A stretch of 64,000 bases of DNA. It comes from Patescibacteria group bacterium (GTDB lineage Bacteria; Patescibacteriota; Patescibacteriia; JBAZBY01). The stretch covers positions 763,454 to 827,453 of the forward strand of contig JBAZBY010000001.1 in assembly GCA_041671225.1 (NCBI GenBank), read 5' to 3'. Of this stretch, positions 5,303 to 32,426 are shown piece by piece. Positions within the stretch are counted from its first letter, which is position 1; each line of letters starts with the position of its first letter. Under the pieces are notes generated by a model, which saw only the letters and a list, made by a program, of their open reading frames with translations, searched no databases and was not told the DNA's origin. Made by a program: the position numbers and the translations under genes.

Positions 5303-7666
5303 TTAGTATTTTTGATAAATGGTGTTAAAGTCTGTAATTTTTCCTTTAAGCTGTGAAAGGCCGTGGTCGTCGCCCACATCAACATGAGAAGTAGTCCAAT
5401 TACAAAAAGAATATATATTCTTGATCTTATCCAAATCGTCGTCAGAAACTTGCTTATTTGTTTTTATGCCATCTACAACTTTTGGAAAGTCCTGCAATAC
5501 ATCAAGGTGTAGGAGACGGCATTTAATAAAGTTTTCAGTCTCGTATCTTAAATATTGGCCATACTCAACTATTTGAAGTTCAACATCAAAACCATTCTGG
5601 TTTTGTCCAAGTTGCAATAAATGTTCCTCAAAGTTGGTAAGTTTTTCAATGAACCTTTGCGTCATGCTTTTACAAATAAAGCTCCCGCCAAATCTCTTTT
5701 CGTTTCTTAGAATGTTGTATTCAAGTGATTGATCGCGGAATTTTTTGCGCAGAAACTTAAAAAATGTTCTGTGGTGAGTAAAAACAAATGTTTGTGAGAA
5801 TTTGTCTTTTTCAGTAGCAATCAAATCTACCAAGCTACTCAAGTTGCTATCGTCTAAACTTGTAATAGGATCGTCAAAGATAAGAATTTTCTTATCCTCA
5901 TCTTTCTGAATATCAAGGAAGGCAAAAAAGAAGCAGAGTGATAGAACCTGTATCTCGCCTTCCGACAGTCCTTCTTTAAGATCTCTTTCGGTCCCGTCAG
6001 AATCAATGACCCTAAACGCTAAAGGCAACTCTTTTGTAGAACCTGTGTGGCGATTGTCTGTATCAAGTTCTAAAGTAAAACTAAATTTGAAATTGCTAAA
6101 ATAGGATTCAATTTTTCGGAGTGTTTTTTTAAAAGCACCCTTAGCGCAATACTCCTCGTAGGATTCTCTTGCTATTTTGTGGGCTTCTCGTGCCTTCTCA
6201 AGCGACCTTATTAACTTGTTTAATTCTTTTAGTTGTTGGAGTTTGAACTTATTACTTTCAATCTTATTACTATTGATAAACCCCAACTCCCGCTCAATAT
6301 CATTCAAATTTCTTTGATTCTTTTCGATTCTACCAGCTAATTTTTCATCAGTATGCTCCTTTTTGAAATTTCTAATAAGCTTATTCTTGGCTTTTACAAA
6401 GCGCGCAAGTTCTAAAAAATATTTTTTTAGATTACTAAACTCATCTCGCGCCTCGCCAAACAGAATGGATATATCCTCTTTGGTAGGTTTCCCAAGATTA
6501 ACAAGTTTTGTTTTTAACTCGCCGATCTTTTTTAGGGTCGGTAATTTTCTAAAATATTCCTCCTTTTCTATGTCGTAAAGTCCTTTTATGGTATATTGTT
6601 CAACGAGCTTCTTCATTTTGATAAAATAATCGTCCAACTCAAACTCGTTGAGTGCCTCTTGTACTTGTTCCAGCTCTGCTATTAAGGTTTCCTTGTATTT
6701 TTCAAACTGACCCTCCTGCTCCTTATAAGATTCATCATAAATTTGATTGTAAGTTTTGACTATCTGTTTTATTTCTTCCTCTCTATTTTGCGTCCCGCAA
6801 AACGGGCATTGATTTGGGTGTTCATCTCTTACATCAAACCCCATTTCAAAAAATTCTTTATGTTTTTTAATCTGCTCAACCAAACTACGCTCGGCCTCCA
6901 CTTTTGCACGCTCTTTTAGTTTGAAATTAAAAACTTTCTGATAGGAAGTTTTTGAGGAGAGGTTAAACTCGATATCAACTTCCTCTAATTCTTGTATGAC
7001 TTGAACTTCCCTCGTCTTTTGCAAGAGCTGACTATCAAGTTCTAGTTCGTTGGACAAATCCACCCTCTTTTGACCGAGTTCTTCCCTTATGTTCTTAGTA
7101 GTATTTTCGTCCTTTCGTTTATACTTTCTAAAAAGTCTTTCCCCATCTTCATCTAATTCAAAACCAAGAACCCGTTTATTGCTTGTCTTAAAGTCATCAA
7201 GTTTCTGATTTTTCTCCTCCTTTATTCCAGCCAATCTATCCCTAACCTTGCGAAGTTCAATGGCATCGCCGTCAAACTCTATGACGAGGTTTCCGGATTC
7301 TTGCTCCTGTTCACCTTGCTGTGTACCTCGTTCACGGCCAAGATGAACATGCCTATCCACAAATTCCCGGTCAAAAAATAATATAGAATCTTTCGGAATA
7401 TAATCATCCCACTTATCCTCAGTGCGAGTATATTTATACCTCTTACTATCAATCAATACTTGCGCTTCTTCAGGGTAGCATTTAGTAAATTTTTTATTTT
7501 GAGATACGCTTTTAAGAATGTTACAAATTGAACTTTTTCCGCTTCCGTTCTCGCCATATAAAATGTTGGTCTTTTGGTGGAAATTCTCGGTATTAAAAAA
7601 ATTATGCCAAGAAAAATCTTGGAATGATTTATAACTTTTTATCTTCTTGATTTGCTTGAGTTTCAT
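5303..7666 (-). CDS. AAA_13-family ABC-type ATPase with a long coiled coil and Rad50-like CxxC zinc hook (RloC/PrrC-like; candidate anticodon nuclease or defence ATPase)
   Basis: Walker A GENGSGKSS at the N-terminus. A lysine/glutamate-rich coiled coil of about 450 aa has CPFCG at its centre. Walker B ILIFDDPITSLD and the H-loop FTHH follow. A C-terminal extension of about 170 aa contains RLLH. The gene is AT-rich (about 35% GC). Confidence 0.65.
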   Translation of the reverse strand: MKLKQIKKIKSYKSFQDFSWHNFFNTENFHQKTNILYGENGSGKSSICNILKSVSQNKKFTKCYPEEAQVLIDSKRYKYTRTEDKWDDYIPKDSILFFDREFVDRHVHLGRERGTQQGEQEQESGNLVIEFDGDAIELRKVRDRLAGIKEEKNQKLDDFKTSNKRVLGFELDEDGERLFRKYKRKDENTTKNIREELGQKRVDLSNELELDSQLLQKTREVQVIQELEEVDIEFNLSSKTSYQKVFNFKLKERAKVEAERSLVEQIKKHKEFFEMGFDVRDEHPNQCPFCGTQNREEEIKQIVKTYNQIYDESYKEQEGQFEKYKETLIAELEQVQEALNEFELDDYFIKMKKLVEQYTIKGLYDIEKEEYFRKLPTLKKIGELKTKLVNLGKPTKEDISILFGEARDEFSNLKKYFLELARFVKAKNKLIRNFKKEHTDEKLAGRIEKNQRNLNDIERELGFINSNKIESNKFKLQQLKELNKLIRSLEKAREAHKIARESYEEYCAKGAFKKTLRKIESYFSNFKFSFTLELDTDNRHTGSTKELPLAFRVIDSDGTERDLKEGLSEGEIQVLSLCFFFAFLDIQKDEDKKILIFDDPITSLDDSNLSSLVDLIATEKDKFSQTFVFTHHRTFFKFLRKKFRDQSLEYNILRNEKRFGGSFICKSMTQRFIEKLTNFEEHLLQLGQNQNGFDVELQIVEYGQYLRYETENFIKCRLLHLDVLQDFPKVVDGIKTNKQVSDDDLDKIKNIYSFCNWTTSHVDVGDDHGLSQLKGKITDFNTIYQKY

Positions 7667-7692
7667 CTTCCGGTCATGGCAAGGACGTCTTG

Positions 7693-8862
7693 TTACCGAT
7701 TTCCTTTTGCTCTATTGTGTGTTTTACACAGCATCTCACAATTCTTCGCCGAAGTAGCACCGCCCTTGCTCCACGCTGATACATGGTCTGCTTCCATTTC
7801 GCCAAAACCCCAAATCTTGCTTTTGTTAGCATCATGCCCAACGGCGCAAAGCGAGCAGTTTGACTTCTCTTTGGTTTCAGCCTCTTTGGTTTGTTTAGCA
7901 TAAACAGATCGTTTGGTCGCCTCATCAAAAAATCGGACATCTAGCAATTTTGTATCAACGGAGCCACCGAGAATGTATTCAAAAATGCCTCTGCGATTTT
8001 TGATATACGGATCACCATAGAGCTTATGCACCTCAGCCGATACTTTGGCTGGGTTATATGATTTTTTGTGATACTCCCCGTAAAGTCGTCCCCATTCAAG
8101 CCCGCGCATTTCGCTTTCTACGTCGGTAAATACGCCAGATACCCAATCAATGACGGTGTTAAAGTATTTTTTCAGCTCATCAATGTTTTTGTCTTTGCGA
8201 TGCTTGCTCATGTAATCGCCAATATTGCCTTTGCTAACCCAATCCAAAGCACATTCCAAAAATTCCTGTCGGTTCGCACTACCGGATACATATGCGCTCC
8301 ATTTTTGAATGTTGGCGTTTTGGCTATTGCTAAATTCTTCTTTAGCCCTAGTTACGAATGGACCGGAATACACGGCGTTGAGTAACTCCTGATTATTAAG
8401 TGGAACACCAGCAATATTTATGGTCTTGAACCATTCTTTTATCTGACTCTCTGTTCCTTCACATTCGTAAATGAGTAGTTTCGTTTCCAAAATCTTGGCT
8501 TGTTTGTCTTTTGCCATGCCACCAAAGTATTGTTCCATGCCATTTTCGTCCTTGATGGCAAATTTGTCCGTGATAAATCGTCCGAGACTTGTGATGCGCT
8601 GTTGTCCATCTAAAACTTCTAGGTTGTCGGCGGAGACGATATTAAAATAAATCAATCCGATTGGGTATCCCTTGAGAACTGATTCGATGACGGCCATTTC
8701 TCTTTTTCCGCCATCAGATGCATAAATATAATTTCGTTGATACTCCGGTTGGATGGTAAGCTTGCCAGACAAGCCAAACAGACCCTTACCCTCAAGTTCG
8801 TTATAGACAAATCCGTCACAGATCTCTTGAACAGTTACATTGGTTTTTAGGGTTGTTTTCAT
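7693..8862 (-). CDS. DUF262 (ParB-like NTPase/nuclease) domain fused to a C-terminal HNH nuclease; GmrSD-like type IV restriction enzyme candidate
   Basis: The N-terminal DGQQR motif ([13 protein letters not shown]) is typical of DUF262. The C-terminal HNH motif is CSLCAVGHD...[11 protein letters not shown]...[15 protein letters not shown]. Confidence 0.7.
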
Positions 8863-8863
8863 A

Positions 8864-9991
8864 TTATTTCTTTTTAATAAATATCCGCTTGAATTTGGTT
8901 TTTCCGTTTATTATGCAATGAGGATTTTTGCCGTCCCAAATGCCGCCAGAAAAGCCCTTTCCGTTATCTTCTGCCATTCCGACAATTTCAAATTGTTCAG
9001 GATTATATTTGTCCAAATAACTAATTGGCACACCCATCACACCTTCATAATCACTTGGGATGGCGTCGGTAAACGGCACTTCTATTGCATTATAATTGTC
9101 ATATTTATAATATGTTTTTTCGCCTTTAATCTCTTTGTGTCTACTGTATTTCAAATTTTCTTCCATTGTCATAAGTGGTAATGGTTGATGACGTCTTCCG
9201 TGATCAAGATTAGTGAGCCATAAACAGCTATTAGTAGCAACAATTCTATCCCCATTTTCATCTATTCGCGCTTCTGTTCCAAATAATTCGTAAGATTTGG
9301 GTACAATAAACCCAGAAATCCATCTTCCCATTCCATTACCAAGCCATATTTCATTATTTCTAATTTTTGGGAAAACTTCTTTATATGTTATGCAATTAAT
9401 ATTGCCGATTATCAAAAACTTTTTTTTGTGTTCAAAAAGTTGCTTAACATACTCACGGAACAAACTAAACGGCGGATTGGTTACCACAATATCAGACTGT
9501 TTCAGTAATGCTATACATTCGGGACTTCTGAAGTCACCATCTTCCTCAAGGGGCATCCATTCGTTGTTTTTGTTTTCCTTTAACTGTTTGGCAACATCTT
9601 TCAGATTGAACTCGCCATCGCCGTCTATGTCGTGCACTTCGTTTATAATGAATGTATTGGCAGTTATCTTTGGACGGCCTTTTGCATTTACAAGCGTTTT
9701 GTCATCACCAAATAATCCCAGTTGCGTGTTGGCGACAGGCGATGGTTTGTAGCTCGTTGTGATTAGCTGTTTCAGTCCAAGTCTGTTGAAATTGAGAACA
9801 AAATAACGGAAGAAATTACTCTCAAATGGATCGTCGCAGTTGCAATACACAACTTTAGCTCGAAATGTATTAGGGTTGTAATCTAAATACTTCTCAATTT
9901 CTTTCTGAATATCGCCATATTGAGTATAAAACTCATCGTTCTTTGCTCGTTTCGCATTTGTAAGATTTTTGACTGATGCTTCTCTAGCCAT
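8864..9991 (-). CDS. putative DNA N6-adenine/N4-cytosine amino-methyltransferase (NPPF catalytic motif)
   Basis: [12 protein letters not shown] matches motif IV (D/N)PP(Y/F). The upstream [11 protein letters not shown] resembles a degenerate motif I. It lies 1 nt from the DUF262-HNH gene on the same strand. Confidence 0.55.
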
Positions 9992-12337: not shown

Positions 12338-13873
12338 GTGGCAACTTCCACTGCTCCCAACCGAGTCGTGATCCTGAAACCGAGCAAGTATCGGGTTGGA
12401 GGCGCGGTGGAAAGGTTCCGCCGCGGTTTCATGCCCAACTCTACCCTCAATCATTTGCAGGCGTTGACGCCGGCATCTGTCGGGGGGCGACTGCTCGAGG
12501 TCGTGACCATCGATGAGTACATCGAAACCGATCTCAAGTACCTGGATGAGCTCAACCCTGAGACCTGTCTGGTGTTTGTTCTTGCTGGCGTGCAGTCACA
12601 CCAGTACAACCGTGCGCTGGATCTGGCCGCGTTGGCGTTGAGTCGCGGCGTGGCCAACGTCATCATCGGCGGACCGCACGCCATGACGTGCCACACAGAG
12701 TCCGAGGAGGGTCGCGGCCTGTCATTCGCACATTGCGAGGCTGAGCTTGTTTGGGAGACCATCCTAGCGGATGCGGTCTCCGGCAAACTACGGCCGACGT
12801 ACGGCGATACGCAACGGTGGCAGCGCCAGCTCATCACCAAGCCGCTGATTCCGCCGACACCGCAAGAGATGCGTCGTTACGTGATTCCGCAGATGGGGAT
12901 CTACCCCTCCCGCGGATGTCCGTATCGGTGCACATTCTGCTCTGTCACGCAGCTCGCTGGGCGCGTGCTCCGCAACGAGCCTTTGGAGGTAACGCTCCAA
13001 ACGCTTCGCGCGGCCAAGGCTGCTGGCGTACGCATGATCATGTTCACCCCGGACAACTTCAACAAGATCCCGGGCATTGAACATCTCTTGCGTGCGATGA
13101 TCGCGGAAGATCTGCGTATCCCGTTCTTCGTGCAGTGCGATACGCAGGTCATGAAGCAGCCGGAGCTCATTGCCCTCATGGCGAGGGCGGGGTGCTACCA
13201 GATGTTCCTCGGGGTTGAATCCTTCAACCGCGCCGTGTTGCTTGCCGCTGGCAAGACGCAGAACCATCCGTCGCAGTATCGACTGATCGTGGATCTCTGC
13301 GAGAAGAACGGCATCCTGTGCCACTTTTCCAACATTGTCGGGTTCCCTGAGCAGCATGAGAAGGACATCCTCGAACATCTGGCGACGATCCTGCAGATCA
13401 ACCCGCACGTGGCCTCGTTCTACATCCTCACCCCGATTCCCGGAAGTGAGCAGTACGCGGACTTTCTGGCGCGCGGGATGATCACCGAGGTGAACATGGA
13501 TCGGTACGACGGAACGTGCGTGACATGGCGTCACCCGCACATCCCACCGGAGCGCATCGTTGACTTGCTCTTCGAATGCTACGCCGCGTTCTACGCGGAA
13601 GAGCGGGCGGCGTTCCTGCCGCCGGAAGCGTTCTGGGCAAAGACCCCGGATATCTCGCGTGATGCGCACAGGGCATACTGCGCGTTCTCACGGAAGGTCA
13701 TCCAGGAGCGTCACCATCCGATGTCCGGCGGATTCGGCCTTGTGGAGGTCGATAATGCGGCAGACTACGCCGCCCTGCGCCGAGAACGCTTCGGGTTTGA
13801 GATGGCACCGCTCCCGCTGCGTCGCGAGATCAACATGGAGGAAATGGATCTCTACGACAGCTCGAGAGCGTGA
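12338..13873 (+). CDS. B12-binding domain-containing radical SAM protein (class B radical SAM methyltransferase-like)
   Basis: A GTG start follows GAAAGGGG. The N-terminal domain is Rossmann/B12-binding-like. The radical SAM cluster motif SRGCPYRCTFCS (CxxxCxxC) is present. GC is about 62%. Confidence 0.7.
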   Translation: MATSTAPNRVVILKPSKYRVGGAVERFRRGFMPNSTLNHLQALTPASVGGRLLEVVTIDEYIETDLKYLDELNPETCLVFVLAGVQSHQYNRALDLAALALSRGVANVIIGGPHAMTCHTESEEGRGLSFAHCEAELVWETILADAVSGKLRPTYGDTQRWQRQLITKPLIPPTPQEMRRYVIPQMGIYPSRGCPYRCTFCSVTQLAGRVLRNEPLEVTLQTLRAAKAAGVRMIMFTPDNFNKIPGIEHLLRAMIAEDLRIPFFVQCDTQVMKQPELIALMARAGCYQMFLGVESFNRAVLLAAGKTQNHPSQYRLIVDLCEKNGILCHFSNIVGFPEQHEKDILEHLATILQINPHVASFYILTPIPGSEQYADFLARGMITEVNMDRYDGTCVTWRHPHIPPERIVDLLFECYAAFYAEERAAFLPPEAFWAKTPDISRDAHRAYCAFSRKVIQERHHPMSGGFGLVEVDNAADYAALRRERFGFEMAPLPLRREINMEEMDLYDSSRA

Positions 13874-21946: not shown

Positions 21947-22014
21947 TCCCTCTGTCACCCTGAGGTTTCTTGCTCTGTCATTCCCGCGAAAGCGGGAATC
22001 CAGGAGTTGATTTT
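21947..22014. repeat. interspersed palindromic repeat element
   Basis: ctctgtcaccctgagg...ctctgtcattcccgcgaaagcgggaatccaggagttgatttta. Confidence 0.7.
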
Positions 22015-22041
22015 AGCCGGAAAATGAAGGATGATGAAGCA

Positions 22042-22785
22042 ATGAACGGTACACGGATCATATCACAGGAGCGGCGCAAATTTATTTCCCCAATGTTCCT
22101 GTTAATATTCATACAGGGGCTGCGGTTTCTCGTTGACGCACAGTATATCTGGGCGGGTCTGCTCATGGCCGCTGGCGTGCTTGGGTATATTGCATACAGA
22201 ATATATTGGAAGGATGCAGAGCCACATTTGCTGCAACAGATCGCACAGCAGTACCACCTCACCGTGCACCAAACGCCCTCGGTTCCAGAGGCCTGGCGAG
22301 AAACAGTCCTCATGACAACGCTGCGTCCGCGGAAAATGTATACGGCCGAAGGCACCATCGAGGGGCACGCTGTTGTGCTCGGTTTTGTGATGGGAACCCA
22401 TGAGAAACGTTCGTTGCTCAGCCGTAAGGTGCAATGGCGCGAGGATTTTTATATCGGCATACGGATCGCACAGGATATTGCGGGATGGCTCGTCGTGGAT
22501 CAGGGCATCCGTGATATTCAAGGCATGGGGACGCGCGTGCAATTGGAAAGTAATGACCTGCACAAGAAGGTGAGCGTTCTTGTTTCAAGTCCACCGCTTG
22601 CCCCGCACATCCTGGACCCGAACGCGATGGCGCTGCTGCTCGATTGGGAATTCTTGCCGGACGTTGAGATTCGGGATTCGCTCGTACTCCTGCGTCTGGA
22701 AATTTCCCGCTATCACCATCGCAAACTGGACTTCCATATCCACAACGCCCTCCGCCTTGCCGCGCAGGTCGAGCGGAATGTGTAG
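22042..22785 (+). CDS. hypothetical membrane protein
   Basis: N-terminal TM helices (FLLIFIQGLRFLV..., WAGLLMAAGVLGYIAY) are present. The listed ORF start at 21970 lies inside a repeat element, so the true start is probably further downstream. Confidence 0.4.
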   Translation: MNGTRIISQERRKFISPMFLLIFIQGLRFLVDAQYIWAGLLMAAGVLGYIAYRIYWKDAEPHLLQQIAQQYHLTVHQTPSVPEAWRETVLMTTLRPRKMYTAEGTIEGHAVVLGFVMGTHEKRSLLSRKVQWREDFYIGIRIAQDIAGWLVVDQGIRDIQGMGTRVQLESNDLHKKVSVLVSSPPLAPHILDPNAMALLLDWEFLPDVEIRDSLVLLRLEISRYHHRKLDFHIHNALRLAAQVERNV

Positions 22786-22792
22786 CATCCCG

Positions 22793-22822
22793 TGGAGTTG
22801 ATTTTACGGGGTAAATGGGGGA
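22793..22822. repeat. partial repeat element tail (GGAGTTGATTTTA...AAATGGGGGAT)
   Basis: It shares the 3' tail of the repeat family, including a pseudo-start ATGGGGGAT. Confidence 0.45.
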
Positions 22823-22887
22823 TTAAAGGAGCTGATTCTGTACAATATAGTGAATCTATGTCATTTTTTGTTTATATTCACTCTATA

Positions 22888-22922: not shown

Positions 22923-23813
22923 ATGGCTACCTCCAATCCCTTTCGTCGTCGTATCAAAGAACTCAAAGAAGAGTTCGACCGTTTGCGTCCGGGCAAGGAA
23001 TCCTTGCTGAACATCATTGATGAAGCAGAGTTGCCGGAAAGCGTGTATAACTCGAACGCGATAGAGAATTCCACGCTGACACTGAAGGAAACCGAGAAGA
23101 TCCTTCTGCAAATGGAGCTTTCGCGCGAGGTGGACCTGCGGGAAGTCTTTGAAGCCAAGAACCTGGCACGCGTCATGGAATATGTCCGTGGCAAAGCGGC
23201 GCAGTCGGAGATCACCAAAGAGCTGATGCTTCTCCTGCACCAGATGTTGCTCCTGAACATCAAAGACGCCATTGCCGGGCGGTTCCGGCAAAAGGGCGAG
23301 TATGTCCGCATCGGTACGCATATTGCCCCTGCGCCAGAAAAGGTGGAACAGATGATTGATGCACTCTTGGTCGATTTTTCCAGCGATCAGGAAAGCTATG
23401 TGACAGACAAGATCGCCAGATTCCATTTGGATTTCGAGACCATCCATCCCTTTAACGACGGCAATGGACGCATTGGCCGCGTGCTCATGAATTTCCAATT
23501 CCTCCGCTTTGGTTTTCCTATGGTGGTCTTGCGCGATAAGGAGAAGCGAGCGTACTACCGCGCGTTCCAGGAATATGAAGGTACAAAGGCAACAAAGCCG
23601 ATGGAGCGGTTCGTTGTGCTCGCGCTCATTGAATCACTGCATAAGCGGGTGACATATCTGCGCGGTGAAAAGATCATCGCCTTAGCGGAGTATGCAAAAA
23701 TACATGCACAAAAAATGCCTGCATTGTTGAACGCCGCACGTCGTCAGACCATCCCAGCATTCCGCGAGCGCGGCGTTTGGAAGATCGGTGCGGAGTATAC
23801 GAATGCAGAGTAA
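22923..23813 (+). CDS. Fic-family protein (AMP-transferase) with an intrinsic inhibitory helix motif
   Basis: The Fic motif HPFNDGNGRIGR is present. An N-terminal SNAIEN matches the (S/T)xxxE(G/N) inhibitory motif. The ATG lies 7 nt after the -10 box, so the mRNA is leaderless. Confidence 0.85.
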   Translation: MATSNPFRRRIKELKEEFDRLRPGKESLLNIIDEAELPESVYNSNAIENSTLTLKETEKILLQMELSREVDLREVFEAKNLARVMEYVRGKAAQSEITKELMLLLHQMLLLNIKDAIAGRFRQKGEYVRIGTHIAPAPEKVEQMIDALLVDFSSDQESYVTDKIARFHLDFETIHPFNDGNGRIGRVLMNFQFLRFGFPMVVLRDKEKRAYYRAFQEYEGTKATKPMERFVVLALIESLHKRVTYLRGEKIIALAEYAKIHAQKMPALLNAARRQTIPAFRERGVWKIGAEYTNAE

Positions 23814-23835: not shown

Positions 23836-23898
23836 CCTCTCTGTCATTCCTCCCACTTGTCATTCCCGCGCATGCGGGAATCCAGGAGTTGATTTTGT
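23836..23898. repeat. interspersed palindromic repeat element
   Basis: tctctgtcattcctcccacttgtcattcccgcgcatgcgggaatccaggagttgatttt. Confidence 0.7.
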
Positions 23899-23905
23899 CT
23901 GCGCA

Positions 23906-24523
23906 ATGTTAGATGATGTCCCCATGCACACACCCATCACCGCCGCCATCTTTGATCTCAACGGCGTCTTTATCGTGAGTCCAAAACTGTCCGACCGCTT
24001 TGCGGAAGTCTATGGCGTGCCGCAGGAACAATTCCTGCCCGCCTTGCAGCATGTGCTGGATGTTGCGCGCATGCCGAATGCCGGCAGCAGCTTCGCACTC
24101 TGGAAGCCATATCTGGACCAATGGCATGTTGAACTTTCTGAGCAGGCGTTCTTCGATTTCTGGTTCTCAGCAGAGCAGGAGAACACGGCCATGATAGCGC
24201 TTGCGCGGGAATTAAAGGATCGTGGTATGCGGCTATTTGTGCTTTCCAATAACTTCCGCGAGCGCACGGAGTATTACCGCAGCCACTTCCCATTCCTCGC
24301 AGAATTGTTCACGTTTATATATTTTTCTTGGGAGCAGGGGTATGTGAAGCCGGACCCGCGTGCCTGGGAATGGCTCATCCAGAACACCGGCGTGGTTCCC
24401 AACGAGACACTGTATATGGATGACAAAGAGGAGAATTGCACCGTGGCGGCGAGTTTGGGTTTTTCGGTATTGGGAGCGATGGATACAGAGGAAATTCGGA
24501 AAGTGGTGGGGATTGAGGGTTGA
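23906..24523 (+). CDS. HAD-superfamily hydrolase
   Basis: AAIFDLNGVFIV is motif I. The listed ORF start (23777) lies inside the repeat element, so the ATG at 23906 (MLDDVPM) is preferred. Confidence 0.6.
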   Translation: MLDDVPMHTPITAAIFDLNGVFIVSPKLSDRFAEVYGVPQEQFLPALQHVLDVARMPNAGSSFALWKPYLDQWHVELSEQAFFDFWFSAEQENTAMIALARELKDRGMRLFVLSNNFRERTEYYRSHFPFLAELFTFIYFSWEQGYVKPDPRAWEWLIQNTGVVPNETLYMDDKEENCTVAASLGFSVLGAMDTEEIRKVVGIEG

Positions 24524-24536
24524 AAAAGTGGGGGAT

Positions 24537-25187
24537 ATGCGCGATGATTCCCCCATGCTTCTTCTCTGTTCAAACGGCCCGGTCGCCCTGAAAGCGATCC
24601 CGGGCATACTCGGCACACCCGTGCAGGATATCCGCCTGCTCTACGTGTTCACTGCCGCCAAGGTGGCACGGGACCGGACGTATCTTGGGCCGGTGGAGGC
24701 GTGTCTTCAAGAGATGCCATACCAGCTCCGCCGCTTTGATATCCAAGGGAAGACGGAGCAGGACATCGATGCGGCGCTTGCGGCCTGTGATGCCGTGTAC
24801 GTGGAAGGCGGCAATCCGTTCTTCCTTCTGCAGGCCGTTCGGGACAGCGGGTTTGCACAGGCAGTACAACGCTTTCTTGCACAGGGGAAGCTGTATGCCG
24901 GTGCCAGCGCTGGTGCATATATCGCATGCCCCACCATTGCCATGGCAACATGGAGAAAACCGGGGGATGAAAAACCGCAGCATGGCGTCACGGAGTATAC
25001 CGCGATGCACCTTGTGCCGTTCCTTGTTGTGGCGCATTACACCCCCAAGCGTGCGGATGACGTGCGGAATGGCATGCAGCACACCACGTTGCCGGTCCGC
25101 CTTCTGCAGGATGGCCAGGGTCTGTTGGTGAATGATGATGGCAGTGTGGAGTTTTTTGGAGAAGGGGAAGAGGGGCGGTTGGAGTAA
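24537..25187 (+). CDS. peptidase S51 (dipeptidase E/cyanophycinase-like) family protein
   Basis: The VYVEGGNPFFLLQAVRDSG...YAGASAGA core is S51-like. The start is chosen after the upstream gene, because the longer ORF (24360) overlaps it. Confidence 0.55.
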   Translation: MRDDSPMLLLCSNGPVALKAIPGILGTPVQDIRLLYVFTAAKVARDRTYLGPVEACLQEMPYQLRRFDIQGKTEQDIDAALAACDAVYVEGGNPFFLLQAVRDSGFAQAVQRFLAQGKLYAGASAGAYIACPTIAMATWRKPGDEKPQHGVTEYTAMHLVPFLVVAHYTPKRADDVRNGMQHTTLPVRLLQDGQGLLVNDDGSVEFFGEGEEGRLE

Positions 25188-25211
25188 GGTGCGCCCTCCT
25201 TTCTGTCATTC

Positions 25212-25335
25212 CCGCGTAGGCGGGAATCCATCCGCTCTGTCATTCCGGCCTTGAGCCGGAATCCATTCATTTACTTTACCCGCCGGAGCGAAGCGTAGGA
25301 GGGTTGATTTTAAGGGGGAAATGGGGGATGATGGA
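25212..25335. repeat. interspersed palindromic repeat element (two hairpin units plus tail)
   Basis: ctgtcattcccgcgtaggcgggaatcca and ctgtcattccggccttgagccggaatcca are followed by agggttgattttaagggggaaatgggggatgatgg. Confidence 0.7.
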
Positions 25336-25935
25336 TTTATGACTGAGGTCTATTCACTTATTAAGGGAGTTGTAAAGAAGATTCGCGATGGACTTTTTTT
25401 GGCATCTAGTAGGACGACCGGGGAACAATACATAGAACCCTTTATTCGCAAGAAATATAATCTTAAAGATCCGACGGGCAATGACTATGATGGGATGGAT
25501 CAAGCGGGAAAAAAATACGAGATTAAGACGTGCAAAGTTTTAAGGGAGACAGGAAACGACAAAAAAACAAAATCCATTCTAGATCGTATACTTTTTGAAA
25601 GTACAAATTTAGAAACGAAAAGGCTCGTGGTTTTTAGGGACCGCGAAACGGCAAAGTACTTAGCAAATGTTCAAAACGTCAAGAGGGATCATTTTGATTA
25701 TCTCATCTACGTTTTACTATTTGCGGACTGTGTGAAAATATTTTGGGCCAAGAGGGAAGAGATTAACACCAAAGATTTTTCTCGTTGGAGTGACAAGCAT
25801 GGTCGCTATGATGCACTTGGTAAGAGTGGTCAATTTGGGATAGATAAAAACAATATATGGTGGCATCTGCAGAATCATCTCAAAGACACTGTATCCTATG
25901 ATGAAATGAGAAAAGTGTATACTGAGCTCTCCTAA
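25321..25935 (+). CDS. putative type II restriction endonuclease (PD-(D/E)xK-like), cognate of the downstream methyltransferase
   Basis: A small AT-rich ORF joined to the methyltransferase by a TAATG junction. The candidate catalytic motif is D(YDGMD)...KYEIKTCK. Confidence 0.4.
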   Translation: MGDDGFMTEVYSLIKGVVKKIRDGLFLASSRTTGEQYIEPFIRKKYNLKDPTGNDYDGMDQAGKKYEIKTCKVLRETGNDKKTKSILDRILFESTNLETKRLVVFRDRETAKYLANVQNVKRDHFDYLIYVLLFADCVKIFWAKREEINTKDFSRWSDKHGRYDALGKSGQFGIDKNNIWWHLQNHLKDTVSYDEMRKVYTELS

Positions 25936-27572
25936 TGAATGGTGTGATCGCGAGAAATACCACCATACAAAATCGCTCAAAACAACAAAGGCTAAGTTCT
26001 GAGCACGTCATTCCTTTTCAGAATGTAAAGGGAGTTGGAGTTGTAAGTTTTTTGCAGTCTTTGAATTTTTTCACTAAGCCAAAGGAGCAAATTTTATTCT
26101 CGATTGGTTGCCATTTGCTAAAAAAAAATAGAAATCCCGCAGTGAGGAAATTTTTAGCAGAGTACGATTATGAAATTCTCGATATCCAAAATATACCCGA
26201 GAATACATTTGATCTTTTGGGTTCGATCTATCAGTTTCTCAACACAAAGAAGGAGAACTTAGAGAAGGGATCATTTTATACTGGCTCTGAAATAGCAAAG
26301 GATTTTGTTAATGATCTGGATTTTTCCTCCGGGCAGATCATTTTTGATCCTGCATGCGGATCTGGTTCATTCCTATTTAATTCCAATGCACCTGCTGAGC
26401 AAATAGTTGGAGTTGACTCTGATCCTATTGCCATCATGATTGCAAAATTTAACTACTTCATTAAGTTTCCCAGATCCCAAGAGCCAAGGCTATTCTGCTA
26501 TGATTTTTTTGATTGGTTTCCCGACAACCGTAAAATAAAATTCGATTATGTTATTAGTAATCCGCCATACGGCGCAAACCTAGATCTGTCTAGAATTCCA
26601 ACTCAATTTGTATCGTCAGGAGAAAGTTTTTCGTATTTCATTGAGTTTGGATATCAACTTCTGAAGAGCGGAGGAGTATTGAGATTTTTATTGCCAGAGG
26701 CAATTTTGAATGTAAAGCGACATACAGATATAAGAGACTTTATACTCGATCAGACTAACTTAAGGAAGATAAAAAGATATTCAAAGAAGTTTTCGGGAGT
26801 AATGTCTGATGTGTATATGATAGAGCTTGATCGTGGCCATGGCCACAAGATGTTATTTATTAATGATGTGACAACAGTCATACCAAAGAAAATATTTAGG
26901 GATTTTAAAAATCACATTCTTGTTCATTTAAATGAACAAGACATAACGATCATCGAGAAGGTGGATCGACTTAAGAGACATGATCTTTCAAATAGTATTT
27001 TTGGGTTAGGAGTGGTGACTGGCGATAATATGTCTAAACTTCTGGACAAGAGAATACCGGGCTCGGAGCCCATCTATACAGGAAAAGAGGTTAATAAGTA
27101 TAAGTTACTCACGCCCAGAAATTATCTGGTTTTTGATAGGGAGAAATTACAGCAGGTTGCTCCTGATGAAATATACAGAGCACCAAAGAAATTAGTGTAC
27201 AAGACAATCAATAAATTTTTGAAGGTTGCTCTCGATACGACGCGATCTCTAACAACAAATAGTGCCAACATAGTGATTCCAAGGGTTCCGGAGTTAGATA
27301 TTTATGTGCTGATGGCATTTTTGAATTCTGACCTTTACTCTTATCTAAATTTAAAGTTATTTGGTGGTGTTAACAAAATCGCAAAAGAAAATCTAATGGC
27401 ATTGCCCTTCCCAGGTATTTCAAAAACAGAGAATACCGTGATTAAAAATCTAGTCAAAGATGCTATCAAGAAAGGAAATGATGAATATCTGCAAAAGTAC
27501 ATTAATAAGAAAATTTTTAAGTTATCTGAACGAGAGATTGCTTATATTAAAGGTTTTGTAACAAAAAAATAA
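25935..27572 (+). CDS. N6-adenine DNA methyltransferase, gamma class (type II R-M)
   Basis: Motif I is IFDPACGSGSFLF and motif IV is VISNPPYG. The C-terminal half is a large target-recognition domain. GC is about 33%. Confidence 0.8.
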   Translation: MNGVIARNTTIQNRSKQQRLSSEHVIPFQNVKGVGVVSFLQSLNFFTKPKEQILFSIGCHLLKKNRNPAVRKFLAEYDYEILDIQNIPENTFDLLGSIYQFLNTKKENLEKGSFYTGSEIAKDFVNDLDFSSGQIIFDPACGSGSFLFNSNAPAEQIVGVDSDPIAIMIAKFNYFIKFPRSQEPRLFCYDFFDWFPDNRKIKFDYVISNPPYGANLDLSRIPTQFVSSGESFSYFIEFGYQLLKSGGVLRFLLPEAILNVKRHTDIRDFILDQTNLRKIKRYSKKFSGVMSDVYMIELDRGHGHKMLFINDVTTVIPKKIFRDFKNHILVHLNEQDITIIEKVDRLKRHDLSNSIFGLGVVTGDNMSKLLDKRIPGSEPIYTGKEVNKYKLLTPRNYLVFDREKLQQVAPDEIYRAPKKLVYKTINKFLKVALDTTRSLTTNSANIVIPRVPELDIYVLMAFLNSDLYSYLNLKLFGGVNKIAKENLMALPFPGISKTENTVIKNLVKDAIKKGNDEYLQKYINKKIFKLSEREIAYIKGFVTKK

Positions 27573-27580
27573 TAATTTTC

Positions 27581-27609
27581 TTGACGCCCCTTCCAGCGGA
27601 GCGTATGGT
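27581..27609 (+). promoter_or_regulatory. sigma70-type promoter with a palindromic operator in the spacer (ACGCCCC-N7-GGAGCGT)
   Basis: TTGACG, a 17-nt spacer, then TATGGT. Near-identical to 28369-28397. Confidence 0.55.
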
Positions 27610-27652
27610 TGTAATATTGTAGGAGTAATTGTTAATATCCAAAGAATTCACC

Positions 27653-27925
27653 ATGAGATGCTACATTCTCACATATGAGAATAAGTCAGGGTTTGATGAG
27701 GCACGATTGATTCAGACGATCAAGGATTATGGAACCTGGGCTCACATAAATGGAAATGCCTGGGCATTTTTAAGTGATAAACCTGCATCTCAGCTTCGTG
27801 ATGAATTTAGGGCCATGGTCAACGAAAGCGATAGCGTTTTTGTTATAAAGACGGGCGTTGAGGCAGCTTGGTCAAATACACACGCTGAATCAAGCTGGTT
27901 ACGCAAATACCTTTTGTATGGTTGA
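27653..27925 (+). CDS. hypothetical small cytoplasmic protein (candidate sensor or regulator of a two-gene module)
   Basis: A 90-aa ORF downstream of the promoter/operator at 27581-27609. It overlaps the next gene by 8 nt. Confidence 0.45.
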   Translation: MRCYILTYENKSGFDEARLIQTIKDYGTWAHINGNAWAFLSDKPASQLRDEFRAMVNESDSVFVIKTGVEAAWSNTHAESSWLRKYLLYG

Positions 27926-28313
27926 GCAAGGAGAAAAAAATCCAGAATCCCAACCACACATTGTCCGGGCATCACTAGACGAAATTGTTGTTTATGATGT
28001 TACAGAGGATGAACTCGACATACTTGAAAATGGTTCACCTAGCTCGCAATACCTGAATTTTGCTTTATTTGCCCTTTCCAGTTTCCTTTCCTTTCTCGCC
28101 GTTTTGCTGACGGTTACAATTGAATTGGACAGAATTTTCATGGTGTTTATTGTGGTTACCATTGTGTCGGGGGCTGCCGGAGCCATTTTTGGAATTCTTT
28201 GGTTTCATAATCGGGTATCAGTAAATAAAATGACCGCTAGAATTCGTAAACGTAAAAGAATACCCGAAGCTCAGGATAGTAGTGGTCAACAGATCAACGT
28301 AACCACTAAATGA
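27918..28313 (+). CDS. hypothetical small membrane protein (2 TM)
   Basis: The ATG at 27918 is in frame with the listed ORF. The TM helices are FALFALSSFLSFLAVLLTV and MVFIVVTIVSGAAGAIFGILWF. Confidence 0.45.
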   Translation: MVEQGEKNPESQPHIVRASLDEIVVYDVTEDELDILENGSPSSQYLNFALFALSSFLSFLAVLLTVTIELDRIFMVFIVVTIVSGAAGAIFGILWFHNRVSVNKMTARIRKRKRIPEAQDSSGQQINVTTK

Positions 28314-28368
28314 TAGGGCTTGTAGCTTCGGAATTCTAAGCCCCTCTGGCACTCTGGAAAAACTTTTC

Positions 28369-28397
28369 TTGACGCCCCTCCTCTCGGGGCGTATGGT
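28369..28397 (+). promoter_or_regulatory. sigma70-type promoter with a perfect palindromic operator (ACGCCCC-N7-GGGGCGT)
   Basis: TTGACG, a 17-nt spacer, then TATGGT. Upstream of the HEPN-like gene. Confidence 0.55.
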
Positions 28398-28439
28398 TGT
28401 GTTTGGATATACATGGAATACAAATTAGTTTGATACTTC

Positions 28440-29708
28440 ATGCCCAGAAAAAGAAGCTCGAAGCGAAAACGTCAACAGGATGAGTTTGATCGATTATCAA
28501 AAGTTTTTGTAAGTAGAATTGTACCAATTTATGACTTATTTTTATTATTCCAAAATGTTAGAGATCAACGGTATAAAAAATTTGATAAAAATTTAAAATC
28601 ATTCCTCAAAAAAAGATACATCACAAGTGAGGGAAAAATAGCAAAACTCCAAATTGAACATCCTCAAGAATTCAGGGCTTTGATTGCAACACAAAAAGAA
28701 CTTAACGAATTAATATTTGCAAGAACACGAATCCCTTCCGCCTTTTTGTCGTTGCTGCTTGAGGAATACGAAACATTTGTTCAAAAATGTTTACAACTTT
28801 ATTTTCAAAAAAAATCTTATCGGCTTTATAGGTCTGATAAAACATTAAGTTATGAGGAAATTCTGAAGGTTAATTCAGCTTTAGGTTTGAAGGAACGAAT
28901 CTTCCAGAAGGAATCAAAGAAAATTATCGATGATGGCGTGAGCGGTATTATCAAGTGGTTTCAGCATGAGGAGATTCAAATACAAAATTACCTCTTTGAT
29001 ATTTGGATGCTAGCTGAAATATTTCAAAGAAGAAATATGCACGTTCACAATCTTGGTAGAGTTGATGAAAAATATATTAGTGTTCTTAAAAATGCAGAAT
29101 TTCCGAATCATTCGAAACTAAAAATAGGTGAGAGATTACCAATCGATTCGGATTATCTGGAAAAAGCTCTCGAGGCTTTTATTGAGAGTGGCATAATAAT
29201 TGCAACCCTACTTTGGATGAAGTGTAGTCCAAAGGATAAAAATAAAAGAATGGAGAATTTATATGAGCTTGGGTACAAATTACTTGAAGAACATAAATAT
29301 GGTTGTTCAGGTAAGGTTCTAAATTTCGCGCAGCATTCGAGTATGACTATTGGTAGCAAAAAGGAACTAAAAATTATTAATATCATAAACCTTGCAACCG
29401 CATATAAATTGTCCGGTGATCGAAAAAAATTTAAATCAACACTATCATTAATTAATAGAACAGAATTAGATGAAAGATTTCAATTTGCTATTGCCGTTCT
29501 TGAGCATAAGTATGTGTTAGCATCTGAATTGATGAAGAAGATTGGAAGAAATGGTTCAATAAGGCGCGATGATTACCATGAGTGGCCACTATTAGCAAAA
29601 TTTAGAAAAACAAAACTTTTTATTAAAACTTACAAAGGTATTTTTGGAGATAATTATAATTTTAAGAGTCCATTTACATCCCGTGTATTTAAAAATATTG
29701 ATCTCTAA
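28440..29708 (+). CDS. HEPN-like (Rx4H) abortive-infection-type protein
   Basis: A 422-aa AT-rich ORF with an RNMHVH (Rx4H) motif, as seen in Abi_2/HEPN proteins. It has its own promoter with the same operator as the upstream module. Confidence 0.45.
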   Translation: MPRKRSSKRKRQQDEFDRLSKVFVSRIVPIYDLFLLFQNVRDQRYKKFDKNLKSFLKKRYITSEGKIAKLQIEHPQEFRALIATQKELNELIFARTRIPSAFLSLLLEEYETFVQKCLQLYFQKKSYRLYRSDKTLSYEEILKVNSALGLKERIFQKESKKIIDDGVSGIIKWFQHEEIQIQNYLFDIWMLAEIFQRRNMHVHNLGRVDEKYISVLKNAEFPNHSKLKIGERLPIDSDYLEKALEAFIESGIIIATLLWMKCSPKDKNKRMENLYELGYKLLEEHKYGCSGKVLNFAQHSSMTIGSKKELKIINIINLATAYKLSGDRKKFKSTLSLINRTELDERFQFAIAVLEHKYVLASELMKKIGRNGSIRRDDYHEWPLLAKFRKTKLFIKTYKGIFGDNYNFKSPFTSRVFKNIDL

Positions 29709-29798
29709 CACGAACTTCATTATTGAGTCTAAATAGACATCCCCACCCCCCCAACAGTAAAGCCCAAAAAGTATCTCCACCCAAAACCCAAAACACAC

Positions 29799-30384: not shown

Positions 30385-30427
30385 CAAAAACACCCCAGTG
30401 ATACCGTCACAGCGGTGTGGTGTTTTT
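30385..30427. terminator. bidirectional rho-independent terminator between convergent genes
   Basis: An A-run, an imperfect long hairpin (AAAAACACC...GGTGTTTTT) and a T-run. Confidence 0.55.
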
Positions 30428-30759
30428 TATGCGGAGAAGATGTTCCGTTCGTTCAACGGAATATGCTGCCCTTTGAGTTCCCGGACGAGGCTGTGGAGCG
30501 CGCGATCCGTACCAACCAGTTCAAGCACGGCAACTTTCACGTCACCGAGCTCTGATTTAATCTCAATGATACCACTTTCCATCCGATCCATCCGGGCGTC
30601 CATCCGATCCATCCGCGTATCTTGTTTTCCCTGGCCACGAACAAGCTGTTCGTTCAGGTCGCGAATCGAGCCACTGAGAACTTCAGTTTGGGCTTCAAAC
30701 TGTGTTTTGAACAGCTCCTTGATGGTGCTGATATCGTTGTGTGTGAGAGACATGTTCAT
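30427..30759 (-). CDS. hypothetical coiled-coil protein
   Basis: A start at MNMSL is preferred. The product contains an RMDRMDARMDRME repeat. Confidence 0.4.
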   Translation of the reverse strand: MNMSLTHNDISTIKELFKTQFEAQTEVLSGSIRDLNEQLVRGQGKQDTRMDRMDARMDRMESGIIEIKSELGDVKVAVLELVGTDRALHSLVRELKGQHIPLNERNIFSA

Positions 30760-30875
30760 AACTCCGTACCGCCGTAAAATGGGAATACAGTATACCCCTT
30801 GCAAAAATACGCTGTCAAAGGTATATATGCACTGCATATCTTTCTGGCAAGCATCTTAGCATTCATCGCATTTTT

Positions 30876-31191: not shown

Positions 31192-31713
31192 ATGAAACCA
31201 TTCCTCCTTATTATTGATGGCCCAATGGGTTCAGGGAAGACGACCACGGCGGAGATGATGCACAAGAAGTTTCCCCGAACCGCAATACTCGGCCTCGATC
31301 GTATCAAGTGGTCTGTTTCTGGATTCAAGCGCGACACACGGAATAACACCATCATCTATGATGTGGTCTTTGCGATGACCAGCGCATTTCTTGCGCATGG
31401 GGTGAATGTCATCGTGGAACAAGGATTCCGGAAGGGGATGGTTGAACAGTACCAGAAGCGCGGGAAGCAATTGGGCGCACGGACCGTCACGGTACAGCTC
31501 ATCGCGCCACGAAAAGCACTCATCGAACGCGTTGATGCCCGCAGAAAGAAACCGAAGTTTCCCGGACGCACGCAGATCTCACACGCTCGCGTGCTCCGTA
31601 ATTTTCGGAAGCATGCAGCAAAACCGCTGATCAAGGGTCACATTCTTGATACCACAACACTTTCTCCGAAGAAGGTCGTGAAAAAGATCATGCAAATGAT
31701 ATCGAAGCCGTAG
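31192..31713 (+). CDS. P-loop kinase-like protein (AAA_33/zeta-toxin-like fold)
   Basis: Walker A IIDGPMGSGKTT is present. The ATG lies 6 nt after the TGGTATACT -10 box, so the mRNA is leaderless. Confidence 0.6.
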   Translation: MKPFLLIIDGPMGSGKTTTAEMMHKKFPRTAILGLDRIKWSVSGFKRDTRNNTIIYDVVFAMTSAFLAHGVNVIVEQGFRKGMVEQYQKRGKQLGARTVTVQLIAPRKALIERVDARRKKPKFPGRTQISHARVLRNFRKHAAKPLIKGHILDTTTLSPKKVVKKIMQMISKP

Positions 31714-31806: not shown

Positions 31807-32046
31807 ATGACCCAAAAAGTACTCAAAGTCGGCAGCTCTGCTGCGGTGACCATTCCAAAGGAAGCGTTGGTTGATTTGCAATGGAAAATCGGAGATAGAG
31901 TGACTGTGGAAAAAGACACCAAACGTGGTGGCCTTGTTATCTTGCCGGTACGCAAAGGAAAGATCGATGCAGAAGTGCTTGACTGGACGGATAACTTCAT
32001 CAAAAAGTACCGTCCGGCACTGGAAGCATTGGCAAACAAGAAATGA
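31807..32046 (+). CDS. AbrB/MazE/SpoVT-family antitoxin
   Basis: KVLKVGSSAAVTIPKEALVDLQWKIGDRV is a swapped-hairpin motif. The stop overlaps the start of the next gene (ATGA). Confidence 0.7.
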   Translation: MTQKVLKVGSSAAVTIPKEALVDLQWKIGDRVTVEKDTKRGGLVILPVRKGKIDAEVLDWTDNFIKKYRPALEALANKK

Positions 32047-32426
32047 CGTACCTCGACGGCGAAGAGGTGCTGGTGCTTCATGCCCGCATGATCGAACTGA
32101 TCGGCGGTTCGCATGGCGTTCGCGATGCTGAGCTGTTGAAGTCTATTCTTGAAGCGCCGAAGCAACGTTTTGGCGGCAAGGCATTACATGCAACCGTATG
32201 GGAAAAGGCGGCAGTATATCTGGAACGCTTTGCGCAGTTTCACGTGTTTGTGGATGGCAATAAGCGGACGGCCATTATTGCGACAGCACGGTTCTTGTAT
32301 CTCAACGGCTATACCTATCATGCGACGAATACAGAAACGGAGCGGTTTGTGTTGCGCGTTACTACAGAGAAACTTGATATGAAGGAAATTGCTGCGTGGC
32401 TGAAGAATCACAGTAAGAAGCAATAA
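32043..32426 (+). CDS. doc: Doc (death-on-curing) toxin, Fic/Doc family
   Basis: The Doc motif HVFVDGNKRTA is present. Confidence 0.8.
   Translation: MTYLDGEEVLVLHARMIELIGGSHGVRDAELLKSILEAPKQRFGGKALHATVWEKAAVYLERFAQFHVFVDGNKRTAIIATARFLYLNGYTYHATNTETERFVLRVTTEKLDMKEIAAWLKNHSKKQ

Follow-up and report, generated by a model that had tools for sequence, protein, structure and literature searches.

The stretch of DNA analyzed here, hereafter called the window, comprises 64,000 nucleotides (nt) from a metagenome-assembled genome of the Patescibacteria (candidate phyla radiation, CPR) and contains an AT-rich island of five genes. This island was rather likely acquired by horizontal transfer and put together from three conflict cassettes, each self-contained, which would serve defense or addiction. 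The first cassette is a putative type II restriction-modification (R-M) pair. The second consists of a Cas2-like protein of 90 amino acids (aa) and a 131-aa protein with two transmembrane (TM) segments, and is predicted to function like the GhoS/GhoT system. The third is a single gene for a 422-aa protein, which probably combines a HEPN core with a TPR-like tail. The biochemical activities of these proteins and their anti-phage role, as discussed below, are predictions.

The island stands out by its composition. From 25.4 to 29.6 kb, the GC content is 0.31–0.43 in every 400-nt segment, as compared to 0.52–0.60 on both flanks, and the GC content at third codon positions (GC3) is 0.26–0.41 in the five island genes vs. 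0.50–0.76 in nine flanking genes. These steps bear out the original prediction, a reading of the window from its letters alone, of an AT-rich block of ~4.4 kb amid GC-richer genes. The composition step is sharp at both edges and the gene content is backed by profile matches; hence, the island is not a product of chance. GC3 also differs among the cassettes, i.e., 0.35–0.40 in the R-M pair, 0.34–0.41 in the Cas2-like pair and 0.26 in the gene for the 422-aa protein, which suggests a mosaic. The five open reading frames (ORFs) of the original prediction are all present, and in four other assemblies of the same organism independent gene callers arrived at the same five genes. Also the overlaps and motifs that it had listed were found, i.e., TAATG at 25933-25937, ATGGTTGA at 27918-27925, and FDPACGSGSFLF, ISNPPYG and RNMHVH in the translations. 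Its description of the block as a typical defense island stands as far as the foreign composition is concerned, whereas the defense role of each of the cassettes is a prediction.

The Cas2-Like Protein and Its Membrane Partner

According to the original prediction, the small two-gene module in the middle of the island had no recognizable family. This view has to be revised for both proteins. The 90-aa protein is, as judged from sequence and modeled fold, a Cas2 homolog that is not a CRISPR component. A word-indexed homology search with this protein returned only the query itself; the relatives of the 90-aa and 422-aa proteins were obtained by exhaustive HMMER searches or with a profile as the query. 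A profile of ten relatives retrieved 1047 protein clusters of 87–96 aa, many of which carry a precomputed match to PF09827 (Cas2) or are named Cas2 or "SinR-like" in their source. In the closest subfamily, 19 of the 20 members match Cas2 models (best E-value 1.1e-9), the window copy being the divergent exception. The 90-aa protein itself matches the phage family phrog_1090 (2.1e-14), and its AlphaFold2 (AF2) model (pLDDT 80) has the Cas2 topology. An aspartate, D9, located at the end of β-strand 1 and aligned with the catalytic position in the Cas2 "SYDI" motif, is at least 90% conserved in the family. The window contains neither a CRISPR array nor cas1. Sequence searches of the PDB with the 90-aa, 204-aa and 422-aa proteins of the island yielded nothing.

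The 131-aa protein belongs to a conserved, unnamed family of two-TM proteins, which are encoded directly downstream of the Cas2-like gene. It consists of a conserved cytosolic N-terminal motif, TM segments at approximately residues 46–68 and 73–97, and a basic C-terminal tail, and both termini of the two-TM hairpin are predicted to be cytoplasmic. The family motif reads I.RGRVDSL.LYE.TD.EL..LE.GSP.S.YLNF, with "IK.R.P" in the tail; one conserved segment reads "RGRVDSLSLYEITD..EL". Matches of the partner family to holin-like models remained below threshold, with Phage_holin_3_6 appearing in 7 of the 21 members. Sub-threshold matches to PycTM and the 4TM effector were isolated, one member out of 21 each.

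The pairing of the two genes is conserved. Of 80 metagenomic loci, 53 encode a two-TM homolog directly 3' of the Cas2-like gene, and the start of this homolog is found −49 to +52 nt from the Cas2-like stop codon (51 of the 73 loci having enough downstream sequence). For example, on an unrelated 1-Mb contig (L094), a 38%-identical two-TM homolog (E-value 4e-24) overlaps the 3' end of the Cas2-like gene. The loci hosting the pair range from 29 to 67% GC, and the two proteins co-diverge: their pairwise identities correlate with r = 0.51 (Mantel p = 0.001, n = 47 distinct pairs). The Cas2-like and two-TM proteins are best read as a two-gene unit present in many unrelated bacteria, with a GhoST-like architecture built on a true Cas2 homolog and with exchangeable effectors. 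PADLOC 2.0 has no system model for the pair, and no description of the module was found in the literature searched (PIN_8, DUF3884, Cas2-like defense, solo Cas2).

The cassette probably functions as a toxin-antitoxin-like or abortive-infection unit, in which the Cas2-fold protein would be the controller that restrains the hairpin-forming two-TM membrane protein. It could do so either by cleaving the mRNA of the toxin, as GhoS does with that of GhoT, or by binding the conserved cytosolic N-terminus. Once this controller is missing or blocked, the two-TM protein would permeabilize the membrane. The overlap between the genes and the conserved cytosolic domain of the partner hint that control may be exerted at the protein level instead of on the mRNA. 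Both the direction of control and the trigger in this scheme are predictions.

Other Contexts of the Cas2-Like Gene

Elsewhere, the Cas2-like gene keeps its place while its partner changes. In the ~170 loci examined, its neighbor was a two-TM, PIN_8, R-M or Thoeris gene, or there was none. A PIN_8 nuclease is encoded downstream (E-values 1e-55 to 1e-62) in roughly a dozen of 80 loci, and this partner was also found in Pectobacterium chromosomes and in ColE1-type plasmids of Klebsiella and Rahnella. On the Klebsiella pneumoniae plasmid pC51_006 (L010:1724-4513) and on pHW114B of Rahnella (L008), the row consists of genes for a 220-aa protein, the Cas2-like protein and a 574-aa PIN_8 protein; the 220-aa protein gave weak matches to Abi_2 and HEPN_RiboL-PSP, so that here again a HEPN-like gene is located beside a Cas2-like gene. 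In Dickeya and Acinetobacter, the Cas2-like gene precedes a type I R-M operon with the gene order S-M-S. On plasmid pBMB26 of B. thuringiensis (L012:2501-4297), the gene, labeled "SinR-like," is immediately followed by a type II Thoeris pair, in which ThsA contains a Macro domain (6e-53) and ThsB a TIR domain (2e-25). In prophages of Staphylococcus, Mannheimia and Enterococcus, solitary Cas2-like genes occupy lysogeny or moron positions. A constant first gene followed by swappable effectors fits a controller-effector logic.

In some environmental bacteria, the unit also moves as an integron cassette. Sites of the attC type bound 7 of 82 module loci, where ~0.6 would be expected. At one of these (L209), near-identical attC-like sites are present on both sides, ending 31 nt before the start of the Cas2-like gene and beginning 665 nt after it; thus, the pair is a single integron cassette there. 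Hairpins of attC (e.g., ACCTAAC...GGTGTTAGAT) also bound the Cas2-like/two-TM pair at L203, L219, L253 and L261. The presence of Cas2-like proteins in integron cassettes has been mentioned before as an unpublished observation (Anantharaman et al., 2013).

From these contexts, a broader proposal can be made, albeit a tentative one. The 90-aa protein may represent a large non-CRISPR branch of Cas2 that acts as the constant controller or sensor of undescribed modular anti-phage or addiction systems, works with interchangeable effectors (two-TM or PIN_8 proteins), leads type I R-M and Thoeris operons, and moves as an integron cassette.

Two other assignments of roles within cassette 2 have to be weighed, and both appear unlikely. 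In the first, the roles are reversed: the Cas2-like protein would be a toxic nuclease, like VapD and BPSL1038, and the two-TM protein its antitoxin, an immunity factor or a membrane anchor. The many prophages with a solitary Cas2-like copy speak against this, as no possible antitoxin is encoded nearby. Furthermore, the partners seen elsewhere (large PIN_8 nucleases as well as type I R-M and Thoeris operons) are not antidotes but effectors, and the two-TM protein has a holin-like topology and a basic tail. In the second, the Cas2-like protein would be neither toxin nor antitoxin, but a general accessory or regulator of the defense operon next to it, and in phages possibly a Cas2 mimic that hinders CRISPR adaptation. 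Its gene heads operons of four unrelated types (two-TM, PIN_8, type I R-M and type II Thoeris) and occurs alone in prophage lysogeny modules, both of which would agree with such a role. However, the co-divergence with the two-TM partner, the gene overlap and the single integron cassette point to a tight two-protein unit rather than to a loose regulator, and the Cas2-like protein has no DNA-binding domain. An arrangement in which the Cas2-like protein controls the membrane protein is preferred.

The Probable HEPN-TPR Protein

The 422-aa protein probably consists of a HEPN core and a TPR-like tail, as suggested by its alignment with relatives and by its structural model. Its layout comprises an N-terminal helical hairpin, a HEPN-like core with E193-R197-R198-N199-x3-H203, and a C-terminal TPR-like domain. 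A word-indexed homology search recovered only one relative; the exhaustive search yielded 2485 cluster representatives, 1277 of which at an E-value ≤1e-10, and nearly all of the 2485 are 400–480 aa long. Among 66 relatives with 22–27% identity, no variation was seen at E193, R197, G206, Y212, Y239 or N317, and conservation is at least 90% at R198 and H203; the consensus reads "IE.TERRNLFVH..G.VS.QYL." The original prediction had recognized RNMHVH as an Rx4H signature of HEPN proteins. This is confirmed, in that R198-N-M-H-V-H203 is the window version of a family-wide, invariant or almost invariant ERRNxxxH in a HEPN-like protein. HEPN_RiboL-PSP of Pfam was matched by 5 of the 66 relatives (best 4.2e-5) and RTasHEPN of PADLOC by 7 (best 2.1e-5). 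Neither the window protein nor any of these relatives matched Abi_2 or the Abi models of PADLOC, and no member matched HEPN_LA2681 in a census of the family. The AF2 model is all-alpha with high confidence (pLDDT 90, pTM 0.88). A match of residues 7–78 to DruM (4.7e-4) was rejected as arising from a low-complexity basic N-terminus; it is shared by only one of the 66 relatives. In the proposed mechanism, the protein would act alone: once its TPR-like sensor domain is triggered, the Rx4H site would cleave RNA.

Alternatively, the HEPN-TPR protein could guard the neighboring R-M system, as PrrC guards EcoprrI (PMC3506569), i.e., it would remain latent as long as restriction works and cut RNA in response to a phage that blocks it. 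R-M operons with HEPN genes have been listed before (PMC3710099), and on three cyanobacterial plasmids members of the present family are located inside or beside R-M operons. Two Nostoc plasmids (L268:2199-9559 and L270:1117-9550) carry a conserved operon of overlapping genes for a TaqI_C methyltransferase (747 or 1111 aa), a 183-aa protein, the HEPN-TPR protein and a helicase-related protein of ~1100 aa; this operon may be an uncharacterized multi-gene R-M-like system that includes the HEPN-TPR family. On a Crinalium plasmid, the HEPN-TPR gene directly follows hsdR, and in the window it is located 0.87 kb downstream of a TaqI_C methyltransferase gene. Nevertheless, a guard role is improbable for the window protein. 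The 79 chromosomal loci inspected lack a conserved neighbor, and methyltransferases make up only 1–2 of 122 flanking ORFs. The two genes of the island are also set apart by a different cassette and a promoter-like element separate from them. Furthermore, the 204-aa ORF of the island and the 183-aa protein of Nostoc were compared and are unrelated. A self-contained HEPN-TPR cassette agrees better with these data. No locus outside the island was found that combines a HEPN-TPR gene with the Cas2-like module.

The Probable Restriction-Modification Pair

The methyltransferase of cassette 1 has strong profile matches. The original prediction of a gamma-class adenine methyltransferase with a C-terminal target-recognition domain is supported by Pfam matches to N6_Mtase (3.6e-18), TaqI_C (8.3e-18) and Eco57I (6.2e-17), all of which pass the curated cut-offs, and by a match to MTase_II of PADLOC (3.6e-64). 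TaqI_C spans residues 379–491 with a score of 65.2 bits (cut-off 26.5). Both motif I (FDPACGSGSF) and motif IV (NPPY) are present, and the stop codon of the preceding 204-aa ORF overlaps the start codon in the TAATG mentioned above.

The predicted R-M pair stands as regards its methyltransferase, while the 204-aa protein is probably the restriction enzyme, as suggested by its position, a D57...E67-x-K69 motif, and two weak matches to the PADLOC models REase_II (2.4e-4) and mREase_II (2.8e-4). It matched nothing in Pfam, NCBIfam or the PDB, and no relative was found in the viral contigs or phage records searched. In annotated plasmid and phage collections, its sole homolog is a hypothetical protein of a Bacillus licheniformis phage-plasmid, which has 30% identity and keeps the D57...E67-x-K69 residues. 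In the proposed scheme, the TaqI-like enzyme would methylate adenine at the target site, and the small PD-(D/E)xK protein would cut unmethylated DNA.

A Repeat Shared by Two Cassettes

Two copies of a 42-nt direct repeat, 83% identical to each other, bracket cassette 2 and precede cassette 3, with copy 2 located 40 nt upstream of the gene for the 422-aa protein. Each contains a promoter-like element with a palindrome in its spacer (Table 1). The element, TTGACG-17-TATGGT, occurs exactly twice in the 64 kb and not at all in 100 shuffles. The repeat was absent upstream of the Cas2-like genes of other organisms and viral contigs and was found only in assemblies of the same organism; thus, it is specific to the island. 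As they share this element, cassettes 2 and 3 are probably co-regulated here. A duplicated promoter with an operator, which would ensure co-regulation, is the simplest reading of the repeat; alternatively, it may be a scar from the joining of the cassettes.

Borders and Genomic Setting

The features of the island and its edges are listed in Table 1.

Table 1. Features of the island and its borders in the window.
Feature	Coordinates	Strand	Basis or remarks
REP-like (repetitive extragenic palindromic) host repeats	25195..25262	.	pair of tandem units; hairpin formed by the second unit at 25242-25262; also present at 21967 and 23849
Host-type leader repeat (GTTGATTTTA..GGGGGAAATGGGGGATGATGG)	25299..25342	+	copies at 22006, 22797, 23888 and 24515, ahead of four host genes
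204-aa PD-(D/E)xK-like ORF, probable restriction endonuclease	25321..25935	+	position, motif, weak PADLOC matches
545-aa gamma-class N6-adenine methyltransferase with TaqI-like C-terminal target-recognition domain	25935..27572	+	Pfam, PADLOC, motifs
42-nt direct repeat, copy 1, promoter-like	27571..27612	+	TTGACG, 17 nt, TATGGT at 27581-27609; imperfect palindrome CGCCCC/GGAGCG in spacer
90-aa non-CRISPR Cas2 homolog, ferredoxin-like fold (by sequence and model)	27653..27925 (from ATG)	+	first gene of two-gene cassette
131-aa two-TM protein, proposed membrane effector/toxin	27918..28313 (from ATG)	+	8-nt overlap with Cas2-like gene
42-nt direct repeat, copy 2, promoter-like	28359..28400	+	TTGACG, 17 nt, TATGGT at 28369-28397; perfect palindrome CGCCCC/GGGGCG in spacer
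422-aa all-alpha protein, predicted RNase effector	28440..29708	+	motif conservation, AF2 model, HEPN matches of relatives
Right junction	29709..29798	.	GC returns to host level; YgjP-like host gene begins at 29799; no match to left-edge repeat

The left edge lies beside interspersed repeats, as the original prediction had noted: the palindromic units, of the sequence GTCATTCC(C/G)GC...GGAATCC, and the leader repeat were both located there. The leader repeat covers the first six codons of the 204-aa ORF. As it overlaps the 5' end of the ORF and the alignment with the homolog begins only at residue 18, translation may actually begin with the ATG at 25339, and a host-type signal seems to drive the R-M operon. 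Over a longer stretch (21967-22047, 22797-22823, 23849-23929, 24515-24548 and 25195-25342), the host repeats consist of a palindrome, GTCATTCCCGCG-N4-CGCGGGAATCC, and a leader, "GTTGATTTT...GATGATG," which immediately precedes at least five gene starts. These interspersed repeats extend the calls of the ORF finder upstream, thus producing spurious "SRESGNPGVDF" N-termini.

The island is flanked by a Peptidase_S51 gene on one side and a YgjP-like gene on the other. At its edges, neither a tRNA gene nor a flanking direct repeat was found. No Rfam family was detected within 24.5-30.5 kb, and the intergenic regions of the island showed no notable RNA structure. There are no attC sites at the island; the only attC-like matches in the window, at 12550-12643 and 6598-6653, come from a loose pattern and may be due to chance. 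The island is 100% identical, with each of its five ORFs intact, in four further assemblies (five loci) from different samples. Searches for exact copies of the two flanking proteins found only assemblies with the identical island. All other assemblies that include the flanking genes bear it, and they represent the same population. Two assemblies (L003 and L004) end ~117 nt ahead of the first island gene. At NCBI, the 90-aa, 131-aa and 422-aa products are labeled hypothetical proteins of "Patescibacteria group bacterium."

It is very improbable that the island is what decay has left of a prophage or other mobile element, with small genes (for a holin-like two-TM protein and a small phage-family protein) that have ceased to be of use to the cell: the match to phrog_1090, the sub-threshold holin matches of the two-TM family and the location of the only homolog of the 204-aa ORF in a phage-plasmid would fit such an origin, but the five ORFs are intact and identical in the further assemblies, the island has no structural, integrase or replication genes, and the two-gene module has been kept as a unit in at least 50 non-phage contexts.

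Other conflict-type genes are found in the window. A second AT-rich block, with a GC content of 0.35–0.41, is located on the minus strand at 5303-9991 and is presumably the "first" island of the original prediction. As read by eye, its genes are those for a methyltransferase of 375 aa with an NPPF motif (8864-9991), a protein of 389 aa that combines a DGQQR (DUF262-like) motif with a C-terminal HNH (7693-8862), and an ABC/AAA-type ATPase of 787 aa (5303-7666). Around the island, genes of host-like GC content (22923-23813, 31192-31713 and 31807-32426) encode, according to Pfam labels, a 296-aa Fic protein and an AAA_33/zeta-like kinase, together with a MazE-type antitoxin whose gene overlaps that of a Fic/Doc toxin; Macro and NUDIX genes follow further on. 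A perfect tandem repeat of a 17-mer, TCCATCCGATCCATCCG, is present in two copies at 30578-30615 in a minus-strand ORF (30427-30837), where it encodes "MDRMDARMDRM."

Weighing of the Evidence and Significance

Several observations weigh against reading the island as an acquired mosaic of conflict cassettes. As regards acquisition, the analysis revealed neither an integrase nor an attachment repeat, nor a relative that lacks the island. In cassette 1, the B. licheniformis homolog of the 204-aa ORF has no methyltransferase gene adjoining it. In cassette 2, the window copy of the Cas2-like protein is divergent: it has E9 in place of the D9 of the family and lacks C78, it reaches the Cas2 models of PADLOC only with E-values of 0.02–0.04, and it has no Pfam match. 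The overlapping, presumably translationally coupled genes suggest a stoichiometric complex over GhoS-style mRNA cleavage, and the solitary copies in prophages imply a role that does not require a partner, which a pure antitoxin role fails to explain. In cassette 3, the window protein has no direct match to a HEPN model in Pfam, NCBIfam or PADLOC, and a Foldseek search with its model gave no significant match in the PDB, the non-significant ones being to TPR proteins only. It retains the Rx4H site and has lost near-invariant residues of the family, i.e., R260, which is changed to M, D339, which is changed to N, and the DWSA motif. In a genome scan with a 16-sequence subset of the 66-sequence alignment, 79 chromosomal loci from many phyla showed no conserved gene next to the HEPN-TPR gene, and only ~10 of the 122 flanking ORFs look like defense or mobile-element genes.

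An acquired defense island is to be expected in the small-genome Patescibacteria, and its R-M pair and HEPN protein only add new representatives of familiar types. In addition, the 422-aa protein reveals a large HEPN-TPR family that is unannotated and for which there is no curated Pfam or NCBIfam profile. As regards cassette 2, a family of at least 1000 Cas2 homologs appears to be located away from CRISPR loci and to take a fixed first place in a unit, whose second gene encodes a membrane protein or a PIN nuclease. This unit moves between phyla; it occurs on small plasmids and in prophages, and also next to Thoeris or R-M systems. The module offers a tractable test of the long-standing idea that Cas2 derives from toxin-antitoxin nucleases, and relatives are available in culturable hosts, e.g., Pectobacterium, Dickeya, Klebsiella plasmids and Staphylococcus phages. 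If the tentative view of a modular controller is correct, the module would show, in present-day bacteria, the toxin-antitoxin-like stage at which the Cas2 of CRISPR systems is thought to have been recruited.

Comparison With Known Systems

Cassette 1 resembles TaqI-type type II R-M systems in the order of motif I, NPPY and a C-terminal TaqI_C domain, and in the small upstream gene for a putative nuclease that is joined by a stop/start overlap. It differs from them in that, apart from the two PADLOC matches of ~2e-4, no relationship of its putative nuclease to known restriction enzymes could be detected.

The family of the 422-aa protein is comparable to the RiboL-PSP/AbiD/AbiF-like branch of HEPN proteins and to TPR-fused families such as LA2681 (Anantharaman et al., 2013). 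It has in common with them the R-x4-H motif with an Asn after the Arg, a predicted all-alpha core, fusion to a TPR-like domain and, in some cases, a location within R-M operons. Unlike these families, it is mostly encoded by a solitary chromosomal gene, and only 5–7 of the 66 relatives reach HEPN models, at ~1e-5.

Cassette 2 can be compared with several systems. Its Cas2-like protein is related to CRISPR Cas2 and to the non-CRISPR relatives of the latter, VapD and BPSL1038. As differences, the window contains neither cas1 nor a CRISPR array, the window copy has a Glu where its own family has an Asp, and the D11(X20)SST motif of BPSL1038 is absent from the family. The 131-aa protein is similar to the TM effectors of abortive-infection systems (CBASS and Pycsar) and to class II holins in being a short two-TM hairpin with predicted cytoplasmic ends and a strongly basic C-terminal tail, and it occupies the variable effector position of a two-gene unit. 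It is not accompanied by a cyclase or another signal-producing partner. The proteins of cassette 2 are not members of the GhoS or GhoT sequence families. It is nevertheless the type V GhoS/GhoT system that they resemble in architecture, in that a small protein with a predicted Cas2 fold is encoded directly upstream of a small two-TM protein.

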